Shown here: positions 1,906-58,517 of the stretch, in pieces
Layout of the letters: each line of letters opens with the position of its first letter
How positions within the stretch are numbered: position 1 is the first letter of the stretch
Assembly (NCBI GenBank): GCA_964558645.1
Contig: CAZLEV010000002.1
Coordinates: forward strand, 192,001 to 256,000
DNA: 64,000 bases
Source: an uncultured archaeon
Lineage (GTDB): Archaea > Asgardarchaeota > Thorarchaeia > Thorarchaeales > Thorarchaeaceae
Direction of reading: 5' to 3'
Program-made: the position numbers and the translations under genes
Notes under the pieces: model-generated
What the model was told of the DNA's origin: nothing
What the model saw: only the letters and a program-made list of their open reading frames with translations
Database searches by the model: none

Positions 1906-2684
1906 AGTCACGACTGAAACACATGTTTCATCTGGCTAGAGTCGAACTTGCGCTCTATTACCGTTTTCCTATCGTAGAAGGGCTGGCAGCAACGGTGTTC
2001 TTCATTATCCTCTATAACACCTATGCTATAGGTGGACAGAGTGGGAGCATCACAATTGGCGATTACGATAGGGTATCGGAATTCATGGGCCAAATAACAT
2101 CCCGCACACTCAACTCGGGACTGATAGGGTTCTACAACTTGCTGGTCCTCTTTATCCCGTTCGTTGTCTCGTTTGCCATCGCAAGACCATACGAAGACGG
2201 ATACTTCCGTACATTGCTGACATACCCTACTAGGAGAAGTCAAGTCTTTATCATGAAAGTCGTAGTCGCAATCATCATTCCAGCCACACTGGTCACCACA
2301 GCCCTCCTCAGCTCAGTGTCTTTCGTGTTTCAGGTAGCTCCAACACTAAACCAGACAGCAGCAATCATAGCTGGTATATGGTTGTTTGTGCTAGTCCAGG
2401 TGTCTCTGGTCACCTTCGTGGCCACACTGACAGAACGACTCTCTATAACATTGATAGCAAATGCCGGGTATTGGATTGCGGTCACAGCCCTGGTGGCGAA
2501 CCCGGGCCTGCATCCGGTACTAATCGGACTCCTCCATCCAATCAGAGCTGCGGCCGGGTATGTGGGTCTACTCCCGACTCCCTTCACTCTCACAGACCTA
2601 GTTGTCGGTGGATTCCTGAACCTAGTCCTCTGTGTGTTCTTACTCGCCTTCAGTCTGTATACTTTCAGGAGAGCCGAGCTATGA
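1902..2684 (+). CDS. ABC-2 type permease
   Basis: About 6 TM segments, EDGYFRTLLTYP motif typical of ABC-2 permeases, ATGA overlap with the ATPase. Confidence 0.88.
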   Translation: MKSRLKHMFHLARVELALYYRFPIVEGLAATVFFIILYNTYAIGGQSGSITIGDYDRVSEFMGQITSRTLNSGLIGFYNLLVLFIPFVVSFAIARPYEDGYFRTLLTYPTRRSQVFIMKVVVAIIIPATLVTTALLSSVSFVFQVAPTLNQTAAIIAGIWLFVLVQVSLVTFVATLTERLSITLIANAGYWIAVTALVANPGLHPVLIGLLHPIRAAAGYVGLLPTPFTLTDLVVGGFLNLVLCVFLLAFSLYTFRRAEL

Positions 2685-3184
2685 AGAGAACGCTGTCGAA
2701 GACAGGGAAACTACTCATGACTCTGGGACTGGTGATAATCTTGATTCCCTATACGGGACAGTACTTCCGACATGAACATGGCGAGTTCTTGGGCGTTTCT
2801 GACGACAGGCCCGGGGCATTCCTTGTCAGTACCAATAGGCCCCTCCTGCATGTTAACATCACACTTGACAGAGGGGACCAGCCATTCTCAATGTATGTCC
2901 TGACTTGGCAAGACGCGAATGAAACTTTTGTCCAGGACAGGTCGATAAATGAGGCGGACCCCATCGCCAGTTTTGAGAATCTGACACACTTCTACGACAC
3001 AATTGCAGTTCCTGAGCCAGGCCTGTATTGCTTTGTCTTTACGACCTCATCCGAGGAAGTCATGTACCTAGACGCAGGCATCAGAGAGATAGGTATGAGT
3101 GTGGGGCTCCTGACAGTCGGAAGTGGGGTCTTTGCTGCTGGTGCGCTCTGCTTCATTCTCGCACTCATCTATAGAAGAAGATAG
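2681..3184 (+). CDS. Hypothetical membrane protein (N- and C-terminal TM, extracellular beta domain)
   Basis: ATG at 2681 overlaps the permease stop (ATGA); the ORF-track extension to 2378 lies inside the permease. Confidence 0.75.
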   Translation: MKRTLSKTGKLLMTLGLVIILIPYTGQYFRHEHGEFLGVSDDRPGAFLVSTNRPLLHVNITLDRGDQPFSMYVLTWQDANETFVQDRSINEADPIASFENLTHFYDTIAVPEPGLYCFVFTTSSEEVMYLDAGIREIGMSVGLLTVGSGVFAAGALCFILALIYRRR

Positions 3185-4039
3185 GACACCTCTGACAAAG
3201 AGCCACGGAACCCAATGATTGGAAATCAGCCGTGAATGTCGTATCCATTTCTTCCAGTTGCCAGTCTTTACTGCCCAGCCCTCTGTCGATCTCTATGGAA
3301 ACGTGGAGAGAACCAATGATAGGGACATCTTCGGTAGATATCACATAGAACACTATTGTATAAGTCCCCCATTACTCTCCGAGGTTGTCATAGCCAAATA
3401 CGCCTCCCCAGTCACCACGTGTCACGTTCCGGAAGTCCCTGCACAGGTCTACCGTTCATTGTATGTGGGACAAAAGATATGAGTCTTCTTCCATACGAAT
3501 GTGATTCAGGACTAGATGGGTCGCGTCCAGGTTCATCACCATGATGATGGTAGACAAACTCGGACACCAGAGAGTTGTCCCCCCAGGTAAGCGCACTGGG
3601 TGGTCTCTGTCGTGGTCAGCGATACTGTGTGAGTGACCAGCTCTCAGTTGTGGGCTGGAGGATATAGACTCCTATACTGGAGTGTCCCACCCTGTCGACG
3701 TTTTCGGTAGCTGTTGGTCTACCCTTGCTGTATAGCCCAGCTGTTCGAACTCCTCTGACGGCATGTTCAGTAGCTGGTGAGTATAGCTCAGTCTGTTCGG
3801 ACAGTTCCCCCAATCGAGGACAAAGACATCATAGTACAGGACGTTAGAGAACCCAGGGTGCGGCGGAGGTACATAAGACTCCATGATGACCCACTCTCCG
3901 AGGTGGACGTACTCGCCATCTTCAGAGATCTGGTAGTGGGACTAAGGGTCTCGCTCACTATGCTCTGGGAGTAGACTGCAGTGCCCAACCCGAAGGTCAT
4001 CAGGACTAGGCCGACGACTGCCAGGGCAGATGCAGCCAT
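3165..4039 (-). pseudogene. Disrupted membrane-protein gene, probable paralog of 2681-3184, split by the repeat element
   Basis: N-terminal TM (MAASALAVVGLVLMTFG), frameshift near 3944, YYDVFVLDWGN...TARVD, then after the element LCRDFRNVT...GE*(TAA 3372-3374)WGTYTIVFYVISTEDV; resembles FSMYVLTWQD...FENLT...GLYCFVFTTSSEEV of 2681-3184. Confidence 0.7.
3446..3723 (+). mobile_element. Non-coding dispersed element, copy 1 (long form), flanked by 8-bp direct repeats GGTCTACC
   Basis: Starts GTTCATTGTATG (3454), ends GTAGCTGTT-GGTCTACC; direct repeats at 3446-3453 and 3716-3723; homologous to 37995-38175 and 58331-58517. Confidence 0.8.
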
Positions 4040-5610: not shown

Positions 5611-5841
5611 GCGTCAGCCTCTTTCATCATACCAATGGTTTTCTCGTTCAGCGTATTCTTCAAGCGAGAGGAAACGATCTGTCTGGCAGTCGAACTCACC
5701 AGTTTATTGTAAGTTAGATAAACTTGGAGGCCAGAGAGTCGTTTCACTGCGGCCTTTGGAAGGCGCCCTCTGCTGTCCGACATACAACGAACTGTATCGC
5801 CCAGGACGTTCGAGATAGTAGGTCAGTCCCTGCAATGAACA

Positions 5842-8331
5842 CTACGGCCAAGTGTATGGCTTCACCTCTTCCCAGAGAAGTCCCTCTGCAGGGCCAGACA
5901 CCAGCACGAAGTAATAGAGGCCCGTGTGATATCCCTGTAACTCAAGGACTGGACTACTGGGCGTGACGACGAACTCATGCACGACTGTGAGATTGGAGGC
6001 AAGAACAAAACCGAAGAAGTCACCCTCCAGCTCTCCTGCAATGAAATCGTAAGCCATTCCGAACTCTATGTAGATGTATCCTTTAAGCAACCCACCATAC
6101 CAATCCCACGAGTCGACAAGCCAGTGATAACTCTCACCACCCTGAACTGGACTGTCAGCGTTGGACGGCAGCTCGGTGGTTGGTGTCACCACCATGGTGA
6201 TGTTGGCCGGACTGTCTAGAACGTTCTCTTTGATGAAGATCAGTCGAGTGATGGTGGTGGGGCCTGCTATCGGATCGATGACATATCCCGGCCAAGTCCC
6301 ATTCACTATCTCTTTCACGAACGTGTCATTCGTCCCGTCTGACCAGAATCTCAAAATGGTTATCTTCCAGTGTGACGGGTCACCACTCCAGTTGAGGAAT
6401 ACAGAGAAGGCCTGAGTGCTGTTGATATCAATCACCTCGTACACGGACTCTCCGGGTTGGACAGTGGTGGTATCGCCCATAGTCTCGTTATTGTAGGTTA
6501 TCTCTATGCTTGGAACAACCCGCATGGATACTCTCCCACTGGCAGCACCCTCTGTGACCGACTTGATGACCCAGATGCGAGCTATCTTCTTCTCTCCATC
6601 CGGCTCGATGAAGACCTCACCCTCCTGTGTAGTCTTGTTCAGGGGGACTAGGAGGGTCTCATTCGTGCCGTCCTCATAGAATACCAGAACGACGGCCGTC
6701 CAGTTCTGTGCGGGACCACTGTAATTGAGCTGTACTCGGAAGGAAGTGCTGTTGGATATCTCGACCTCCTCGATCACAGCACCGCCGCCGCCTCGAACTC
6801 CCACGGTATCGCCGATTGCTCCTCCGGTGTAGTTAAGTCTGATGTGGGGTGTATAGACTGGAACACCATTAGCGTGGTGAGAATCAAGAAAGAGCCAGCT
6901 GAGAAAGCGGGCATATATCTCGGACCAGGTCATGTTCAGCGCGGTCGCAAGAGCATCCTTTGGATCAACGTTGCGGGCATCTCCGGGTCCGTAGTATCTG
7001 GTCGCATTGAAGACCTCAAGAAGCTTTTCGGCCCCGTAGGTCTCATTGATGAACTTGATGAACAGAAATGATGCCATGTAGGAGTTCCAGCTGTGGTCCC
7101 AACCATGGAAGGGGCTGGTCCCGTTCGTGTCACGGAAATGGTCGAACCAGTTGAGCGAGCCGATGGCACGAGCCATGTCATTCCAGGCCGACATGGTCAT
7201 GTTTGGATAGTTCTTGAGCATGGAATATACTCCCCAGAACTCGGCCATTCCCTCATCCCACCAGTAGTCAGGTTCATGTAGAGGATAATACGAACCACCT
7301 AGTGAGTCCGTGCGGGTCTTGAACTGGAAGAGGTGGAACAGCTCATGCTCCCCGACCACTTTGAGTTCTTCTTTAGTTGCCCTAGTTCCCACTCTGATGA
7401 CGATCTCTCCACTGCTTCTGGATACACCTGTAGACTCAGCAGAACCGCTTCTCACCAGACGGATCTTGATCTCATTTCCGGCTGCCGTGGCAGGATCGGT
7501 GAAGTTATGCTCTCTGAAGAAGTTCAGCGAGAAGTTGATGTGCTCTTTGACTAGAGCAATGACTGATGCGTTCACGCCGGGCCCCGCCGTAACCGTCACA
7601 TTCTCTCCGCGTTGCACATCAGGACGGACTATCCCATCGAAGTCATCAACAAGCCTGATGCTGTTAGTGAACAAGATCTGTTCTCCGCCGAAATCACCAG
7701 TTGTTGTGAAGAGCTCGGTATTCGGCTCTCCGGGAGTCTGAATGGTTGATATCCATGAGCTGGAGTATCCTTCGGAGTTTCCCATGAGTGAGATCGAGTG
7801 GTTGTCGCCAGGAGAGATACTCACGCCCATCTCCTCATTGGGCCAATCACCCATGACGGGATCACCATTGCCTCCTCCGTATCGCATGAAACTGACGAGA
7901 GCACCGGTAGCGTCGTGGAGACCCACTTCGTCGCCGGGAAGATCCAAGTGCTTTGTTGTTGAACCTGTATAGATAGTCGCCTGTCCGTCACCCACATCGA
8001 GGTCATTGGTCCCCGAGCCAGACACAACCAGAATGAATGCGAACTCGGAGTCACCGGTCAAAGTAGGTAACACGATACGGTCGTCATCATATGTTGTGAG
8101 GATCCAGCCGGTGATGTCCTCAAGACCCCCGTCCGTATAGAGCTCTACATACTCAGGAGAGTCGTCATGACTGGGCATGACTTCATTGATTATGATAGCC
8201 TGAGATGAAGCGGAGGGAATGTCTCTCAGTTCGACAGGCTGTTCGGTTTTCGACAACTGAAGATAGACATAGGATCCAGCTGCAACTCCAATAATGAGAA
8301 TAACGACGAATGCAACTATGCGGCGGTTCAT
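5842..8331 (-). CDS. Membrane-anchored extracellular metallopeptidase: lamin-tail domain + HEXXH gluzincin + repeated beta modules
   Basis: N-terminal TM; IIINEVMP...EYVELY (LTD); HELFH...WWDEGMAEF; many N-x-S/T sequons. Confidence 0.8.
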   Translation of the reverse strand: MNRRIVAFVVILIIGVAAGSYVYLQLSKTEQPVELRDIPSASSQAIIINEVMPSHDDSPEYVELYTDGGLEDITGWILTTYDDDRIVLPTLTGDSEFAFILVVSGSGTNDLDVGDGQATIYTGSTTKHLDLPGDEVGLHDATGALVSFMRYGGGNGDPVMGDWPNEEMGVSISPGDNHSISLMGNSEGYSSSWISTIQTPGEPNTELFTTTGDFGGEQILFTNSIRLVDDFDGIVRPDVQRGENVTVTAGPGVNASVIALVKEHINFSLNFFREHNFTDPATAAGNEIKIRLVRSGSAESTGVSRSSGEIVIRVGTRATKEELKVVGEHELFHLFQFKTRTDSLGGSYYPLHEPDYWWDEGMAEFWGVYSMLKNYPNMTMSAWNDMARAIGSLNWFDHFRDTNGTSPFHGWDHSWNSYMASFLFIKFINETYGAEKLLEVFNATRYYGPGDARNVDPKDALATALNMTWSEIYARFLSWLFLDSHHANGVPVYTPHIRLNYTGGAIGDTVGVRGGGGAVIEEVEISNSTSFRVQLNYSGPAQNWTAVVLVFYEDGTNETLLVPLNKTTQEGEVFIEPDGEKKIARIWVIKSVTEGAASGRVSMRVVPSIEITYNNETMGDTTTVQPGESVYEVIDINSTQAFSVFLNWSGDPSHWKITILRFWSDGTNDTFVKEIVNGTWPGYVIDPIAGPTTITRLIFIKENVLDSPANITMVVTPTTELPSNADSPVQGGESYHWLVDSWDWYGGLLKGYIYIEFGMAYDFIAGELEGDFFGFVLASNLTVVHEFVVTPSSPVLELQGYHTGLYYFVLVSGPAEGLLWEEVKPYTWP

Positions 8332-8464
8332 AGGCTCACCTTCTCGTGGCCTTCACTATGGTTAACTAACTATTTAACGGTTTCTTTTGTATCCTGATAA
8401 TCTGTTTCTTGAAGTTAGGTGAGTGAACGTCACCTGTAAGAAACTTCTGCGTTCCACCCCTCCC

Positions 8465-29388: not shown

Positions 29389-32300
29389 ATGGGTTCGAAG
29401 AGAAACGCATTCCTGTTCCTAGCATTCGTTGGCGTCCTGACAGTACTACTGAGTGCTACGCCGATTCTATCTTCCACCTTAGATATCCGCGAGAATGACC
29501 ACTGGGAATACCCTGTAGAAAGCAACCCGGAGTCAGGATACTCTGTTTCTGATAGGGAGCAGCATTCGCCCATCACGATCACGGGGAACAGTCAATTTGC
29601 TTCAATGGCCCAAGAGAATGGATGGCCGGGTTCAGGAGCTGCTGGCGACCCCTATGTGATTACAGGCCTAGAGATTGATGTCGGAGGAGAGTGGGGCAGC
29701 TGTATCACTATCGAGGCTACCGATGTCCATTTCCAGATATCTGACTGCCTGCTGAAGGGAGCAAGCATCGGTGATGGATACGGCGAGGGGTGCGGCATCC
29801 GACTCGTTGACGTACAGAATGGCGAACTGAGAAATAACATCTTGCCTGGCAACCAAATCGGAATAGCCCTGGGCACACCTGACCAGTTCAGTGCGAGTAC
29901 TGCATCAAGTTTCATTGTCATAGAGGGAAATGATCTTAGTGGCTCTACCGAAGGGATTGTAGTCCGTGGATCTTCTGACAATACAATAGAGGATAACACA
30001 TGTAATGGTTGTGCATTCGGGATTCAAGTCGATCACACATATGACGCCATCACTGAGGAGTTAGTTCGTTCCCAGCGGAACATCATCCGTCGGAATACAA
30101 TAGGGTTCTCCAGTGATGTCGGTATCATGGTCAGGATATCCGATCAGATATCGATTACTGAGAACGTGATACGCCGTGGCCTCGGAAAAGGAGTAAGCAT
30201 TCAGGATGTGACAAACACAGCTCTCTCAGAAAACATCCTACTGAACAACAAAGTGAACGCAGAATTTGGTATCGCCCTGAGCGCGAGCACTGTCGACTCA
30301 AACCTCTGGTCAGACTATGATGGTGTTGATGCAGACTATGATGGTATTGGTGACACTCCCTACACAGGACCAGGCTTCGAAGACCACCATCCCAGGATAT
30401 GGCTCAGCGGCTACCGGCTCCCACTGGTGATTGATGGCGACTCCGATCTTGAAGAACGAGCACTGGGAGAGGGTTGGGGCGGGGATGGTAGTTCAAGCAA
30501 CCCGTACGTCTTTGAGAATTACCGCATTGAGGGCAGCAGTGATGCCTGTGTCAGCATCAATCGCCTGATATCAAAACATGTTGCCATTCGGAGTTGTCAT
30601 CTATCGTATGGAACATCCGGGATTCATATTGAAAACGTGAACACATTCGTGACTGTTGAACAGAACACAATCTCTGAGACCGACCACGGGGTCTTGCTCC
30701 AGGCGGACTTGTCAGAACCGTACGCTGAACCATTCGCGAACATCGTTGACAATCAGTTCACGAATAATGGTGTTGGAGTCTTTCTCTCACAGGCCGGTTG
30801 CTTGATGAGTTTCAATATTATCACGGGCAGCCGAGGTTTCGGAGTCTATGCCGAGAACTCACGAAATGTGGACATCTCAGACAATAGAATAGCCGAGTCG
30901 GAATCAGATGGCATCCACCTGTATAATGTACACGAGTTCTCTCTCAGTTTGAACAACTGCTCTGCCAATGGGGGGCATGGACTCGTTCTTGAGGACTGTA
31001 CAGGGTCCGTGGACCCAGATGGAATTGGATGGCTAGAACAGAACATCCTCTCATACAACGAATATGGATTGTATCTTGGTGCAGGTACAGCAGATTGTGG
31101 TTTCCGGGGCAATGTTGTCAGGGGGCGTACTGCTGATGCGGTAGACCATGGAACTGGAAACATCTTCCAGCAGAATACATGGTGGGGTTACACTGGAGTT
31201 GATTTGAACAATGACGGAATTGGTGATACCCCGTATGCATTCACAGGTAACCACGACCCGACTCCAGTATTCCCGTTGTACTGGGTGACTGCCCCCACTG
31301 ATCAGCAGATGGAGACTGTCGAGCCGTTCATCTATGACCTCGACGCCGAGTCATCCTGGCCTGATCTTACCTGGAGCATCAATGATACTCGGTTCACAGT
31401 GAGCAACGACGGAGTCATTGAAAACGCGACTCCGTTGGTTGAGCAGTTCTATCCATTAGAGGTTACGGTGGAGGGGGGAGGAGTTCTATCCGACACCTTC
31501 ACTCTTGCGGTCGTACAAGATATTGAACCACCGGAAACCACTGCTGACGTATTGGGGGAGATGGGGTTGAATGGATGGTATACCTCCGAGGTCACAGTGA
31601 CTCTCACAGCAGAGGACTATCCAGAAAACACCGGTCTGGGAGTGGACTACATTGAGTATCATGTTGAGGTGTCTGCTGATACTTCGGGAAGTGGGTCGAG
31701 CAGTTCGACAACGATCAAACCTGCAACTATTGCGCCGTTCTGGCAGCTCTACGATGGACCCATTCTTGTCGGGGATGAGGGGGCTATTACAGTCTACTTC
31801 AGAGCAGTTGACCTTGCCGGGAATGTCGAGGATACCAAGTCTGTCACATTCTACATTGACAAGAGTGCTCCTGAAACCTCTGCAGCCCTGGCTGGCGACT
31901 TTACATCGACAATGTGGTACTATACAGATGTGGAAGTCACCCTCACAGCAACGGATGCATATTCTGGGGTCTCCAGTATTTTATACAGCTTTGACGGAGA
32001 GTCTTGGATCGTCTATACTGGTCCGTTCGTTTTGACAGGTGACGGAACCTATACTGTCTACTACTACTCCATTGATATGGCAGGCAATGTTGAAGAAACG
32101 AAGTCAATCGGGGTGGGAATCGACACTGAGGCTCCAGAAACATCAGCTGGGATTGAGGGAGTCAAAGGGAACCAGCAATACTATCTCTCTGAAGTAACCG
32201 TGACGATAACGGCCTCAGACGCGACATCAGGAGTTGACAGTATCTGGTATTCGTTCGATCAAGAGACATGGAGTCTCTATGATGCGCCATTCACCGTGAC

Positions 32301-35067
32301 TATGGAGGGGGAGACTGTGTTCTATTACTGGGCCATTGACAACGCAGGAAATGAGGAACCGATCAAATCGACCACCATAGTCATTGACACATTACCGCCA
32401 GTCACAACCGTACAGCTTGAGGGCGAGAGTACAGAGAGCGGGTGGTTTACATCAGAGGTCCTAGTGACACTATCCGCAACCGACACCGAATCGGGGGTGG
32501 AGCAAACTGCATACAGTTTCGATGGCGAGGCCTGGTTGGTATATGATTCACCCTTCACATTTTCCCTGCCCGGAGTTACAACTGTCTACTACAAATCCAT
32601 AGATGTTGCTGGGAATACAGAGGTCACAAAGACTGTGGAGATACGGATAGATGGAACACCGCCGGAAACCTCCATAATACTGACTGGCGCCAAGGGATTG
32701 AATGAGTGGTATATCTCGGAAGTAGAGATCTCCCTCATCGCAACAGATGCAGAGGGATCACAGGTTGTAACCGCCTACAGTTTCGATGGAGAGAGCTGGA
32801 TCATCTATACCGAGCCTTTCGTGATTTCAACTGAGGGACTCCATATCATCCATTACAACTCTACCGATGAGGCAGGGAACGTCGAAGACACTGATACGGA
32901 GACCGTCCGAATAGACTTGACACGGCCGGAAGGAAGCATACATCTTATGGGCCAAGAGGGGACGAGCGACTGGTATCTCTCGGACGTGGAAGTCACAATC
33001 ATAGCCACAGATTCACCATCAGGCATCCTTCATGTACGGTACAGTCTGAACAATGGACCGTGGATGGACTACAACGGACCCTTCACCATAACAACAGAGG
33101 GTTCCAATTGTGTGGAATGGGAGTTGGTTGACCGTGCCGGTTGGATGTTGAATGGCTCGTTCAGCGCGAGTATAGACAAGACTCCGCCAACTACATCTCT
33201 GAGCTACGAGCAGATAAGCGGCATGGGCTCGATTGTGAATCTGACCGCAATCGACTCTGTTTCAGGGCTGGCCGCCATCAGCTATAGTACAGATGGAGTC
33301 ACTTGGTCAACATACTCGGAGCCCTTCCTTCTCAGCGAAGGGGGAATCGTGCCGGTCTACTTCAATGCGACAGATGTGGCTGGTAATGTAGAAGAGCCAA
33401 AGATGGGGCTTGTTGAGGTTGATGTCCTTCCACCGGAAACAAGCATCAGCCTTGATGGCGATCTCGGTCTGGACGGTTGGTACGTTTCTGACGTCATTGT
33501 GAGCCTATCTGCAGTTGATGATCTCATGGGTGTTGACCGGATTGCATATAGCTTCGATGGTCTGGTCTGGATCGAATACTCGAGTCCCTTTGTTATCACA
33601 GATGATGGCCTCACGGTCATCTACTTCAATGCAACTGATCTTGTGGGAAACATGGAGGACACCAAGACAGAGAAGGTTCGCATTGACAAGACTGCACCAA
33701 CAACGACGCTCACAGTCTCACCAGAACCCTACGGTACGGATCCCATTTTCGTTACCACTCTCTCTGAGTTCGAGCTTGAAGCATTTGATAGTCTGCCGGG
33801 TTCAGGAGTGGAACGGACGGAGTATCGGATAGCTGAGGGTAGCTGGATTATCTACGACAGGCCATTCGTTATGGACTCGATCGGGCAGTACGAACTTCAT
33901 TACCGTAGTATCGATGTGGCGGGGAATGAGGAACGTGTTCAGTCAATCACTATCATCGTCAACGGAACGTCAATCCACTATGTAGGGGAAACATCTGGGG
34001 TCTATTCAGATCCAGCACACTTGACGGCAACCCTTGTTGACCTCGCTTCGCAGTCTCCGATAGCGGGAGCCACTGTCTTCTTTTCGATAGGGAACCAAGT
34101 CGTCTCGGCCATCACTGATAGCGACGGCAGTGCAAGCGCAGTCCTCATACTTGAGCAACCAGCAGGGGTGTACACAGCCACGGCGCTGTTTGATGAGGGA
34201 GATGTCTATCTTGCTTCTTCAGACCAAACTGACTTCGTCATACATCGCGAGAGCGCTGAAGTATACTACACAGGCTCGACTGTAGTACCCTCAACAGCGG
34301 AATCGATCTGGCTGAGAGCAACCGTATTTGATGATGACGACGGCTACTGGGGAGATCTGACAGCTGTATACGTGACATTCTGTATCTATCTCACGACAAA
34401 CGATGAACTCTCCTTGTTACAGAGTGTCGGGCCATATGCAGTTGAAATGACCAGCATTGAGGGAGTAGGGACAGCGGTGGGAGAGATACCAAACCTTACA
34501 GAAGGCGAATATCTCGTTGTTGTCATCCTCGAAAAGGAGTATAACAGCTACTACGAAGCCCCCGACTCCGAGGGAGTCAGGGTTACTGTGTTCGAGCCGA
34601 CCCGCGATTTTGTCACAGGGGGAGGGTGGATCTGGGACGAGAATGAACAACGAAGCCACTTTGCGTTCGTCATCCGATATGATAAGACAGGCGTGGCAAA
34701 GGGGCAGGTTGTTTATACCTATATAGAAGGTGATTGGTTACATATCGTCAAGAGCAGAGCGATATTGGGCCTTGCGATTGAGGAGGAGCATGCATTCTTC
34801 GAGGCAACGTGTTTTATCGTCAAATTGAACCTGCGAACCGGCTGCTTGATCTGGACCAATGAGGAGTACAGGCTCAGAATTGATGTCTGGGATAAAGGCA
34901 AACGTGGGAGAAACGATATCTTCCAGATTCGTATCCTTGATCCCAATGGCATAGTCTATCATGAAAACGGGTTCGATCCCAGTGGAAACCTTGGTGGAGG
35001 AAACATCACAATCCATTACAGCGGGAAGAACCAGATGCATTGCTGCAAAAGAAAGAAACGCAGATGA
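29389..35067 (+). CDS. Giant surface protein: NosD/pectin-lyase beta-helices + nine OmpL47-like Ig repeats + C-terminal domains
   Basis: Signal peptide from ATG 29389; two beta-helix blocks ending DGIGDTPY; nine D..PP.T...Y..D.AGNVE repeats; FVTGGGWI tail. Confidence 0.88.
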   Translation: MGSKRNAFLFLAFVGVLTVLLSATPILSSTLDIRENDHWEYPVESNPESGYSVSDREQHSPITITGNSQFASMAQENGWPGSGAAGDPYVITGLEIDVGGEWGSCITIEATDVHFQISDCLLKGASIGDGYGEGCGIRLVDVQNGELRNNILPGNQIGIALGTPDQFSASTASSFIVIEGNDLSGSTEGIVVRGSSDNTIEDNTCNGCAFGIQVDHTYDAITEELVRSQRNIIRRNTIGFSSDVGIMVRISDQISITENVIRRGLGKGVSIQDVTNTALSENILLNNKVNAEFGIALSASTVDSNLWSDYDGVDADYDGIGDTPYTGPGFEDHHPRIWLSGYRLPLVIDGDSDLEERALGEGWGGDGSSSNPYVFENYRIEGSSDACVSINRLISKHVAIRSCHLSYGTSGIHIENVNTFVTVEQNTISETDHGVLLQADLSEPYAEPFANIVDNQFTNNGVGVFLSQAGCLMSFNIITGSRGFGVYAENSRNVDISDNRIAESESDGIHLYNVHEFSLSLNNCSANGGHGLVLEDCTGSVDPDGIGWLEQNILSYNEYGLYLGAGTADCGFRGNVVRGRTADAVDHGTGNIFQQNTWWGYTGVDLNNDGIGDTPYAFTGNHDPTPVFPLYWVTAPTDQQMETVEPFIYDLDAESSWPDLTWSINDTRFTVSNDGVIENATPLVEQFYPLEVTVEGGGVLSDTFTLAVVQDIEPPETTADVLGEMGLNGWYTSEVTVTLTAEDYPENTGLGVDYIEYHVEVSADTSGSGSSSSTTIKPATIAPFWQLYDGPILVGDEGAITVYFRAVDLAGNVEDTKSVTFYIDKSAPETSAALAGDFTSTMWYYTDVEVTLTATDAYSGVSSILYSFDGESWIVYTGPFVLTGDGTYTVYYYSIDMAGNVEETKSIGVGIDTEAPETSAGIEGVKGNQQYYLSEVTVTITASDATSGVDSIWYSFDQETWSLYDAPFTVTMEGETVFYYWAIDNAGNEEPIKSTTIVIDTLPPVTTVQLEGESTESGWFTSEVLVTLSATDTESGVEQTAYSFDGEAWLVYDSPFTFSLPGVTTVYYKSIDVAGNTEVTKTVEIRIDGTPPETSIILTGAKGLNEWYISEVEISLIATDAEGSQVVTAYSFDGESWIIYTEPFVISTEGLHIIHYNSTDEAGNVEDTDTETVRIDLTRPEGSIHLMGQEGTSDWYLSDVEVTIIATDSPSGILHVRYSLNNGPWMDYNGPFTITTEGSNCVEWELVDRAGWMLNGSFSASIDKTPPTTSLSYEQISGMGSIVNLTAIDSVSGLAAISYSTDGVTWSTYSEPFLLSEGGIVPVYFNATDVAGNVEEPKMGLVEVDVLPPETSISLDGDLGLDGWYVSDVIVSLSAVDDLMGVDRIAYSFDGLVWIEYSSPFVITDDGLTVIYFNATDLVGNMEDTKTEKVRIDKTAPTTTLTVSPEPYGTDPIFVTTLSEFELEAFDSLPGSGVERTEYRIAEGSWIIYDRPFVMDSIGQYELHYRSIDVAGNEERVQSITIIVNGTSIHYVGETSGVYSDPAHLTATLVDLASQSPIAGATVFFSIGNQVVSAITDSDGSASAVLILEQPAGVYTATALFDEGDVYLASSDQTDFVIHRESAEVYYTGSTVVPSTAESIWLRATVFDDDDGYWGDLTAVYVTFCIYLTTNDELSLLQSVGPYAVEMTSIEGVGTAVGEIPNLTEGEYLVVVILEKEYNSYYEAPDSEGVRVTVFEPTRDFVTGGGWIWDENEQRSHFAFVIRYDKTGVAKGQVVYTYIEGDWLHIVKSRAILGLAIEEEHAFFEATCFIVKLNLRTGCLIWTNEEYRLRIDVWDKGKRGRNDIFQIRILDPNGIVYHENGFDPSGNLGGGNITIHYSGKNQMHCCKRKKRR

Positions 35068-37994: not shown

Positions 37995-38175
37995 GGCATA
38001 CCAACAGCTACCGAAAACGTGGACAGAGTTGGGCATGTCAGCGCAGGAGTTTATGTGCTCCAGCCCATGAGAGCTGGTCATTTTCACAGTATCGCCGACC
38101 ACGACAGAAACCACCCACTGCCGTGACCTGAGGGGACAACTCTCTAGTACCAAGTTTGCTCAACATACAATGAAC
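37995..38175 (-). repeat. Non-coding dispersed element, copy 2 (181 bp, inverted)
   Basis: Reverse complement reads GTTCATTGTATGTTGAGCAAAC...AGAGAGTTGTCCCC...TCTGTCGTGGTC...GGGCTGGAG...ACGTTTTCGGTAGCTGTTGGTATGCC. Confidence 0.9.
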
Positions 38176-50020: not shown

Positions 50021-50276
50021 TCATTTCTTATGAAGTAATCTGAAAGAATGTTCTGTGGTAACTAGAGCTCTGTGTTCGAAAGCAGGTATTAGTAGGACTA
50101 TGCACACATACTTAACGATTTGAAACGCAAAAAGGGGAGATGCGAAATCATGCTATCATCAAATTCCAGAGAATGCGGAACTTGTTTCTGTGTGTTGCCA
50201 CTCTTCCTGCTGTGAATCGCAGGTCTTGTCGCTGGAACGCAGAAGTATCTTACAGGGGAGGTTCACCAAATTGTAA

Positions 50277-50644
50277 GAAACAGATTATCAGGAACTTACT
50301 AAGACGAAAATCATCGAGATAGGTAGATGTCACTCCAAGATAACATTGGAAGAACTTAGTCGGCTCACAGGAAGCCGGTCGACAGGGTGCGAAACATCGT
50401 ATGCAATCCGATTTCAAGTGGAAACCTGAGTGGAACGATAGAAGGAATGACATTCATCCGTGACACTGCCGCTCCCGCAACGAAGACTGTTAAACGCGAG
50501 ATTATGGTGACTCGCAAGGTTCGGGAGAACTGCTTCAAGTGCAGAGCGAGCATCAATCCGCAAGAAGTCGAATGGATTGGGCCAGACACGGTAAGATGTT
50601 CACACTGCAGGGCAATACTATCTGTAAGAACCAAGAAACTGTGA
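50277..50644 (+). pseudogene. Decayed PCI-like winged helix + zinc-ribbon gene
   Basis: KITLEELSRLTG, frameshift near 50372, KPVDRVRNIV..ISSGNLSGTIEG, then CFKC...CSHC; upstream TAA and no start. Confidence 0.55.
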
Positions 50645-58330: not shown

Positions 58331-58517
58331 GTTCATTGTATGTTGGACAAACTTGAACACCAGAGAGTTGTCCCCCTCAGCTAACGGCACTGGGTGGTTT
58401 CTGTCGTGGTCAGTGATACCGTGTGAGTGACCAGCCCTCAGTCATGGGCTGGAGGATATAGACTCCTACGCCGAAATGTCCAACTTCGTCCACGTTTTCA
58501 GTAGCTGTTGGTGTACC
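58331..58517 (+). repeat. Non-coding dispersed element, copy 3 (187 bp)
   Basis: GTTCATTGTATGTTGGACAAAC...AGAGAGTTGTCCCC...GGGCTGGAGGATATAGACTCC...ACGTTTTCAGTAGCTGTTGGTGTACC. Confidence 0.9.

Follow-up and report, generated by a model that had tools for sequence, protein, structure and literature searches.

Results

A 270-bp insert divides a small membrane-protein gene

The stretch analysed here, called the window below, comprises 64,000 nucleotides from the genome of an uncultured archaeon of the Thorarchaeaceae (G000; 3.63 Mb in 37 contigs, 92.8% complete), for which genomes of two sister species (G001 and G002) were available. Near the beginning of the window, a gene on the minus strand starts at position 4039 with a hydrophobic segment and is divided into two halves by a 270-bp insert, referred to here as copy 1 of a repeated element (Table 1). 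As noted in a preliminary description of this DNA, the same perfect 8-bp sequence, GGTCTACC, occurs at both edges of the insert (3446-3453 and 3716-3723 on the plus strand). The boundary of the insert cannot be placed within this repeat, and by the convention used for IS607 elements copy 1 would span 3452-3721.

Table 1. Features of the interrupted gene and of the inserted element, in window coordinates unless a contig is named; family counts refer to 26 copies.
Feature	Position	Strand	Basis or remark
Host gene, 5' half: signal/TM segment, then domain	3724..4039	-	frame change between 3950 and 3941
Host gene, 3' half	3165..3453	-	in-frame TAA at 3374..3372
Copy 1, probable miniature IS607-type element, 270 bp	3454..3723	-	repeat family; ends homologous to full-length elements
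Left-end terminus, minus-strand GG-TAGACC; family consensus GG-TAYACC	3716..3723	-	copy alignment
AGGG adjoining left end, target/TAM-like motif; family A (15/26) G (23/26) GG	3722..3725	-	26-copy junctions
Right-end junction; GG core 3452-3453, host TAGACC 3446-3451	3446..3453	-	sequence comparison
Long right-end module of copy 1: outer terminus ...TGTCCCACATACAATGAACGG plus ~84 extra bases (3475-3546)	3452..3546	-
177-bp core common to other copies, 80-89% identity	3547..3723	-
Copy 2, 187 bp	58331..58517	-
Copy 3, 181 bp, TnpB direction on plus strand	37995..38175	+
Long right-end variant in other genera	L013 (G009:C8:31597-31704), L016 (G006:C15:96551-96602)

Computational deletion of the 270 bp (3454-3723) restored the minus-strand frame and joined ...GYTARVD to LCRDFRNVT..., as had been proposed. 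A protein search of 41 genomes of the family detected homologues of the N-terminal piece of the host gene (75 aa) in 11 related genomes; in most cases the homologous region is the C-terminal domain of a membrane protein 421-498 aa long, and in one case it belongs to a short form of 208 aa; the family has no match in Pfam. When a profile was built from the 11 homologue domains, with the window sequence left out, the rejoined product aligned to profile positions 17-171 (113 bits) in an alignment that was ungapped across the junction and continued through a frameshift and a stop codon in the host gene. Aligned alone, the N-terminal half ended at profile position 115 and the C-terminal half began at position 119. 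In a comparison of eleven in-frame alternatives, the exact 270-bp deletion also scored highest (107.5 bits), and deletions differing from it by 3-9 bp reached 93.7-103.2 bits. Because the homologues are collinear across the junction and the exact deletion is the top-scoring one, these data show that the 270-bp element entered a small membrane-protein gene cleanly and that its precise removal restores the frame.

The gene carries two additional lesions, both seen previously (as a frameshift at ~3944 and a TAA at 3372): a change of frame between 3950 and 3941 (near 3945) and an in-frame TAA, the complement of 3372-3374. Since the reading frame is broken at these two further places, no selection maintains expression of the host gene. 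The preliminary description had also likened the rejoined product to the neighbouring protein encoded at 2681-3184, a resemblance that did not hold up: BLASTP returned only a non-collinear match of 10 residues (E = 0.023), the motif quoted in its favour gave E = 1.8, and the host-family profile did not match the neighbour at all (0.0 bits), so that the likeness is not significant.

When the DNA of related genomes was searched for an intact orthologue of the host gene, the sole matches were to the element and to the flavodoxin-like gene downstream; the best identity found in the protein search of the 41 family genomes was 39%, and a search of 5.8 billion proteins for longer host-gene proteins retrieved nothing. 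The empty allele at this site has therefore not been seen, as neither the sister genomes nor the large protein collection holds a closer orthologue. The uninterrupted allele is predicted to read ...CAGGTCTACCCTTGC... at the junction.

The insert belongs to a family of gene-less elements

In G000 we found 14 full copies of a ~190-bp element (75-88% identity) as well as partial copies, with further copies in the sister species G001 and G002. Besides copy 1, two copies lie in the window (copies 2 and 3; Table 1). Copy 2 ends in GGTGTACC (58510-58517) and its opposite flank ends in AGC; copy 3 ends in GGTATGCC (reverse complement at 37995-38002) and its opposite flank ends in ACC, in agreement with the earlier observation that the right-hand 8-mer of copy 1 is kept in other copies whose left flanks end in ACC or AGC. 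The end then called left corresponds, in reverse complement, to the sequence downstream of the stop codon of a TnpB-like gene in G000 (see below), so that the natural orientation of copy 1 is the minus strand; its TnpB/omegaRNA direction is thus the same as that of the host gene, and left and right are used in this sense from here on.

The termini of the miniature element, GGTAYACC... on the left and ...ACAATGAACGG on the right, are not inverted copies of each other. Both ends, as read from the sequences, contain two tandem 7-nt motifs at a spacing of 10 bp, and the left-end pair is inverted relative to the right-end pair. The motif is TGTCCAA-like in the miniature element and TGTCTAG at both ends of a longer element in another genus (L058, genome G009). 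Such joint change at the two ends is expected of transposase binding sites, and these motifs are presumably bound by TnpA.

Copy 1 is 84 bp longer than related copies. We considered whether its extra 84 bases represent a nested insertion and rejected this explanation in favour of a conserved long form of the right end, which G009 shares fully and G006 partly. The long variant of the right end (...TTTGTCCACCATCATCATGGTGAT...TTTTGTCTAG..ACAATGAATGG) is present in full in copy 1 and in G009, and its first part in G006, a distribution suggestive of a second right-end subfamily.

Searches of the window with Rfam (gathering threshold) and for tRNA genes produced no matches. Folding of 25 aligned copies with RNAalifold gave weak energies and no strand-specific covariation for an omegaRNA fold.

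Isolated pieces of the element were also observed. At 5698-5800 of the window, just beyond the 3' end of an 829-aa gene (5842-8331), a degenerate fragment resembles the right end (73% over 37 nt at 5711-5747) and also has a short match in inverted orientation at 5774-5796. This fragment probably represents a solo end that has decayed. A solo left-end fragment is found 1.6 kb before the start of the window (G000:C2:190339-190380), where it adjoins a paralogue (36% identity) of the 2681-3184 gene.

The window also contains further repeats. One pair of ~65-nt inverted repeats, unrelated to the element, is 87-91% complementary over a distance of 41.8 kb (8392-8456 and 50233-50293). At 31789-33579, six or more units recur with a period of 264 nt, most likely corresponding to tandem domains of ~88 aa in a large secreted protein. 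Finally, a 320-nt inverted repeat (73%; 75-394 and 1336-1655) reflects two divergent paralogous genes for ABC-transporter ATPases (2-733 on the minus strand, 994-1905 on the plus strand).

Element and target share a GG core, usually followed by T

To define the junctions, 26 copies from G000, G001 and G002 were oriented in the TnpB direction, with one orthologous pair collapsed. They followed the pattern AG/GG-TAYACC...ACAATGAAC-GG/T, where slashes separate host and element. On the left flank, A occurred at position -2 in 15/26 copies and G at position -1 in 23/26, and GG came next; the right end terminated in ...ACAATGAAC-GG, finishing CGG, and the next host base was T in 23/26. Host positions beyond this T were unconstrained. 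All 26 copies had the same orientation relative to the asymmetric GGT, and GG(T), which is ACC on the strand of the preliminary description, was the sole sequence systematically shared by element and target.

The 8-bp repeat of copy 1 exceeds this shared sequence by five bases. When the host flank of each copy was compared with its own left end past GGT, 0, 1, 2 and 3 of these five positions matched in 7, 8, 6 and 3 copies, respectively; four matched in a single copy (L044, in G001), and all five in copy 1 only. With shuffled flanks, 5/5 matches occur with a probability of 0.13% per copy (~0.0013; ~3% over 26 copies), and four or more with a probability of 1.7%. The fifth base of the left end of copy 1 (GGTAGACC) is a G that is also present in two further copies, whose flanks are unrelated, and it must therefore come from the element and not from the target. 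The simplest description of the perfect 8-mer is thus the systematic GG(T) plus five bases that agree by chance. The proposal that an element-borne core had recombined with a similar target, rather than generating a random target duplication, stands in its idea, with a core that is 2-3 bp long and not 8: the 8-mer itself is not a core site, as only GG and the preferred T recur among the 26 copies.

Alternatively, the transposase might favour targets whose similarity to the left end of the element extends past the core, much as serine integrases use pseudo-att sites, in which case the 8-bp identity of copy 1 would not be coincidental and would be a signature of target recognition. Copy 1 with its 5/5 matches and L044 with its 4/5 are more than the ~0.45 copies with at least four matches expected among 26, but this excess is not significant (P ~0.08, Poisson estimate), the other 24 copies are at chance level, and the TnpA of IS607 shows minimal target specificity beyond (G)GG (PMC6188088). 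We consider such a preference unlikely, although less so than the alternatives discussed further below.

Empty sites opposite filled sites of a sister species reveal no target duplication

For five copies in G001, both flanks were found to adjoin each other in G000, allowing filled and empty sites to be compared. At L049, the filled site reads ...CTAGCG/GG/TACACC on the left and ...GAAC/GG/TGATTT on the right, and the empty site (G000:C24:~21999) reads ...CTAGCG-CG-TGATTT, exactly flank, two nucleotides and flank, with CG as the core. At L043, the left junction of the filled site has GG and the right one GA, and the empty site, whose length is again exact, reads ...GTCTAG-GA-TTTGG... (G000:C15:~56444); right junction and empty site therefore share the non-canonical GA. 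The empty sites of L047, L044 and L050, whose flanks are 78-94% identical to G000, were 1-2 nt longer than predicted and lay beside short runs. None of the five sites (0/5) showed a target duplication between G000 and G001. This pattern fits an IS607-type exchange over a 2-bp core, which may be GG or the overlapping GT. The CG and GA cores of the empty sites, and the mixed GG/GA junctions of L043, recall mixed-core products that have been reported from the Clostridium botulinum IStron (CboIStron).

The ends probably derive from a TnpB-encoding transposon of the IS607 type

Where a gene for a 719-aa TnpB-like protein (Pfam Cas12f1-like_TNB and OrfB_IS605) ends in G000, the ~75 nt at its stop codon and beyond match the right end of the miniature element. 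This gene is present in three full copies and several copies at contig ends, and its TnpB has relatives in MAGs of Candidatus Thorarchaeota. The gene stands head-to-head with a giant ORF at G000:C14:53967-61936 and also on contigs C27, C6, C30 and C10. In this genome the giant ORF measures 1,571-1,884 aa and is multicopy, at 26-93% identity, with several copies ending contigs; two giant ORFs, including the C14 copy, had no match in Pfam.

In other genera of the family, the same TnpB forms part of elements with the order left end, tnpA, giant ORF (in some), tnpB, right end. In one of these (L058, 8.6 kb) tnpA and tnpB are separated by the giant ORF, which is encoded on the opposite strand, and another (L059, 3.2 kb) has tnpA and tnpB without it; in these full-length relatives tnpA is followed downstream by tnpB, and the right end comes after the stop codon of tnpB. 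TnpA is a protein of ~200 aa in which an N-terminal MerR/HTH_17 domain (residues 2-57) precedes a Resolvase domain (residues 66-204), as found at L058:698-1336 and L059:443-1045. The ends are alike as well: the left end reads AAG/GGTTTGATAACAGCTAC in L058 and AG/GGTAYACCAACAGCTAC in the miniature element, and the right end reads ...ACAATCAACGG/T in the full-length relatives and ...ACAATGAACGG/T in the miniature element.

On these grounds the insert is most probably (about 0.85 by our estimate) a non-autonomous, miniature derivative of a Thorarchaeota transposon of the IS607 family, mobilised in trans by a serine-recombinase TnpA. We infer the mobilising enzyme from the elements of other genera, as no serine recombinase (PF00239) was detected in G000, G001 or G002.

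Other origins of the insert

Miniature elements of a different transposon class, the PATEs of the IS200/IS605 type, are also TnpB-associated, lack terminal inverted repeats and target duplications, and have a short conserved motif beside one end, all as seen here. Such elements depend on a Y1 tyrosine TnpA that acts on single-stranded DNA, and are inserted 3' of a short motif, with a target-like cleavage site at the right end. However, no Y1_Tnp domain (PF01797) was detectable in the genome G000, the full-length relatives encode a serine recombinase with a MerR-type HTH, and GG is found at both junctions, with a right end finishing CGG as in IS607 elements. We rejected a Y1-dependent origin on the basis of the missing PF01797 and the serine recombinase of the relatives, and regard it as very improbable.

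Slightly less probable still is a MITE moved by a DDE transposase with a target-specific 3-bp duplication (ACC/GGT). This explanation accounts for the GGT found at both junctions in most copies, but not for termini that are not inverted repeats or for the uniform orientation (26/26) relative to the asymmetric GGT; moreover, the empty sites of L049 and L043 share two nucleotides between the junctions rather than a 3-bp duplication, and instead of a DDE enzyme the full-length relatives possess a serine recombinase and TnpB.

Least probable of all is an intervening sequence removed from the RNA (a group I intron or IStron-like sequence, or an archaeal bulge-helix-bulge intron), with the gene expressed after splicing: the insert is a multiple of three in length and sense-oriented, its removal restores the frame, and IS607 relatives bearing introns (IStrons) do exist, but no Rfam family reached the gathering threshold anywhere in the window, the ~190-nt core (181-270 nt for the element) is far below the size of group I introns, the host frame stops 14 codons into the insert, the same element occurs at many unrelated sites, and the host gene is further broken by a frameshift and a stop.

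Discussion

A model for insertion by serine-recombinase exchange

Under the preferred reading of copy 1 as a miniature IS607-type derivative, the element would have kept both ends and the region next to the right end, which corresponds to the sequence at and beyond the 3' end of tnpB in full-length elements, the expected position of an omegaRNA. If events resembled those in IS607 and CboIStron, a TnpA supplied in trans would have cut out the element as a circle of double-stranded DNA with the junction ...GAAC-GG-TAYACC...; for copy 1, the circle would join ...CAATGAACGG to TAGACCAACAGC.... The circle would then have exchanged strands, at its GG core, with an AG-GG-T site in the membrane-protein gene, an exchange expected to leave GG(T) at both junctions without a duplication. 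The reverse reaction would, by the same analogy, be scarless, which would explain why removal of 270 bp restores the frame. At this site the five host bases after GGT would by chance have equalled the left end of the element, yielding the perfect 8-bp repeat, and the host gene would later have acquired its frameshift and stop codon.

The model has a possible extension to guide RNAs. The host TAGACC at 3446-3451, identical to the left-end terminus, is also the start of the sequence that an omegaRNA guide would carry. By the same analogy, we infer that a minus-strand omegaRNA with a guide beginning TAGACCTGTGCAGG... would recognise the uninterrupted allele next to AGGG. A further, unlikely possibility is that copy 1, being sense-oriented, provides TnpB with a guide directed at that allele. 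The suggestion of an omegaRNA comes from the homology, over ~75 nt, between the insert and the tnpB-proximal right end. In the genome, the putative guide of copy 1 has no second target, matching only the copy itself at 0-2 mismatches.

Copy 1 is probably an old and now immobile insertion, a fossil, as suggested by the divergence of 12-25% between copies of the miniature element, by the two further lesions of the host gene, and by the failure to detect TnpA in the three genomes of the genus. The family nevertheless provides a natural example of scarless insertion of the IS607 type in an Asgard archaeon, with empty and filled sites in sister species. In addition, the target logo AG-GG-T predicts the TAM of the large TnpB nucleases of Thorarchaeota, and would be useful for testing these enzymes.

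Comparison with known systems

Elements of the IS607 family insert at GG, with a preference for (G)GG, carry GG at their termini and generate no duplication; they are devoid of terminal inverted repeats and have short repeated motifs near their ends (PMC6188088). The Thorarchaeota elements resemble IS607 and IS1535 in that the full-length relatives combine a serine-recombinase TnpA, bearing an N-terminal MerR-type HTH, with TnpB, and in that terminal inverted repeats and target duplications are missing and a GG core is found at both junctions and in the target. They differ from IS607 in the giant ORF often located between tnpA and tnpB of the relatives, in the unusual length of TnpB (~720 aa), in the strong preference for T just after the core (23/26), and in that TnpA was found only in related genera and not in G000, G001 or G002.

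In the C. botulinum IStron, excision by a serine TnpA yields a double-stranded circle as the intermediate, and the donor is rejoined without a scar; integration occurs at 5'-TGGG-3', which is also the TAM of TnpB, the omegaRNA scaffold ends in ...UCGG where the right end has TCGG, and 40 bp of the left end and 60 bp of the right end suffice (bioRxiv 10.1101/2023.11.20.567912). The preference for G upstream of the core is similar (AGGG here, TGGG in CboIStron), as is the right end (...ACGG here, TCGG in CboIStron). Unlike the IStron, the miniature element contains no intron, and the Rfam search of the window at the gathering threshold gave no match to a group I ribozyme. The sufficiency of short ends (~40-60 bp) for mobility in IS607 and in the mini-IS derived from the C. 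botulinum IStron corresponds to what the miniature element keeps, but whereas that mini-IS is experimental, the gene-less derivative described here occurs naturally, in an Asgard archaeon.

PATEs of the IS200/IS605 type are likewise gene-less, keep the ends and guide-RNA region of a TnpB element, and insert scarlessly beside a short motif; they differ in using a Y1 tyrosine transposase, single-stranded intermediates and subterminal hairpins, as opposed to the serine recombinase of the relatives and the GG core at the junctions found here. Loci combining aCas1 or a giant protein with TnpB in Asgard archaea were reportedly described by Altae-Tran et al. in 2023. G000 resembles them in that a TnpB of the same large family is arranged head-to-head with a giant ORF, whereas the miniature element carries neither gene and consists of ends only.

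Taken together, every testable feature that defines the IS607 family was found here, with a transposase found only in related genera, and copy 1, in its decaying gene, is an ordinary remnant of mobile DNA of a kind already known.
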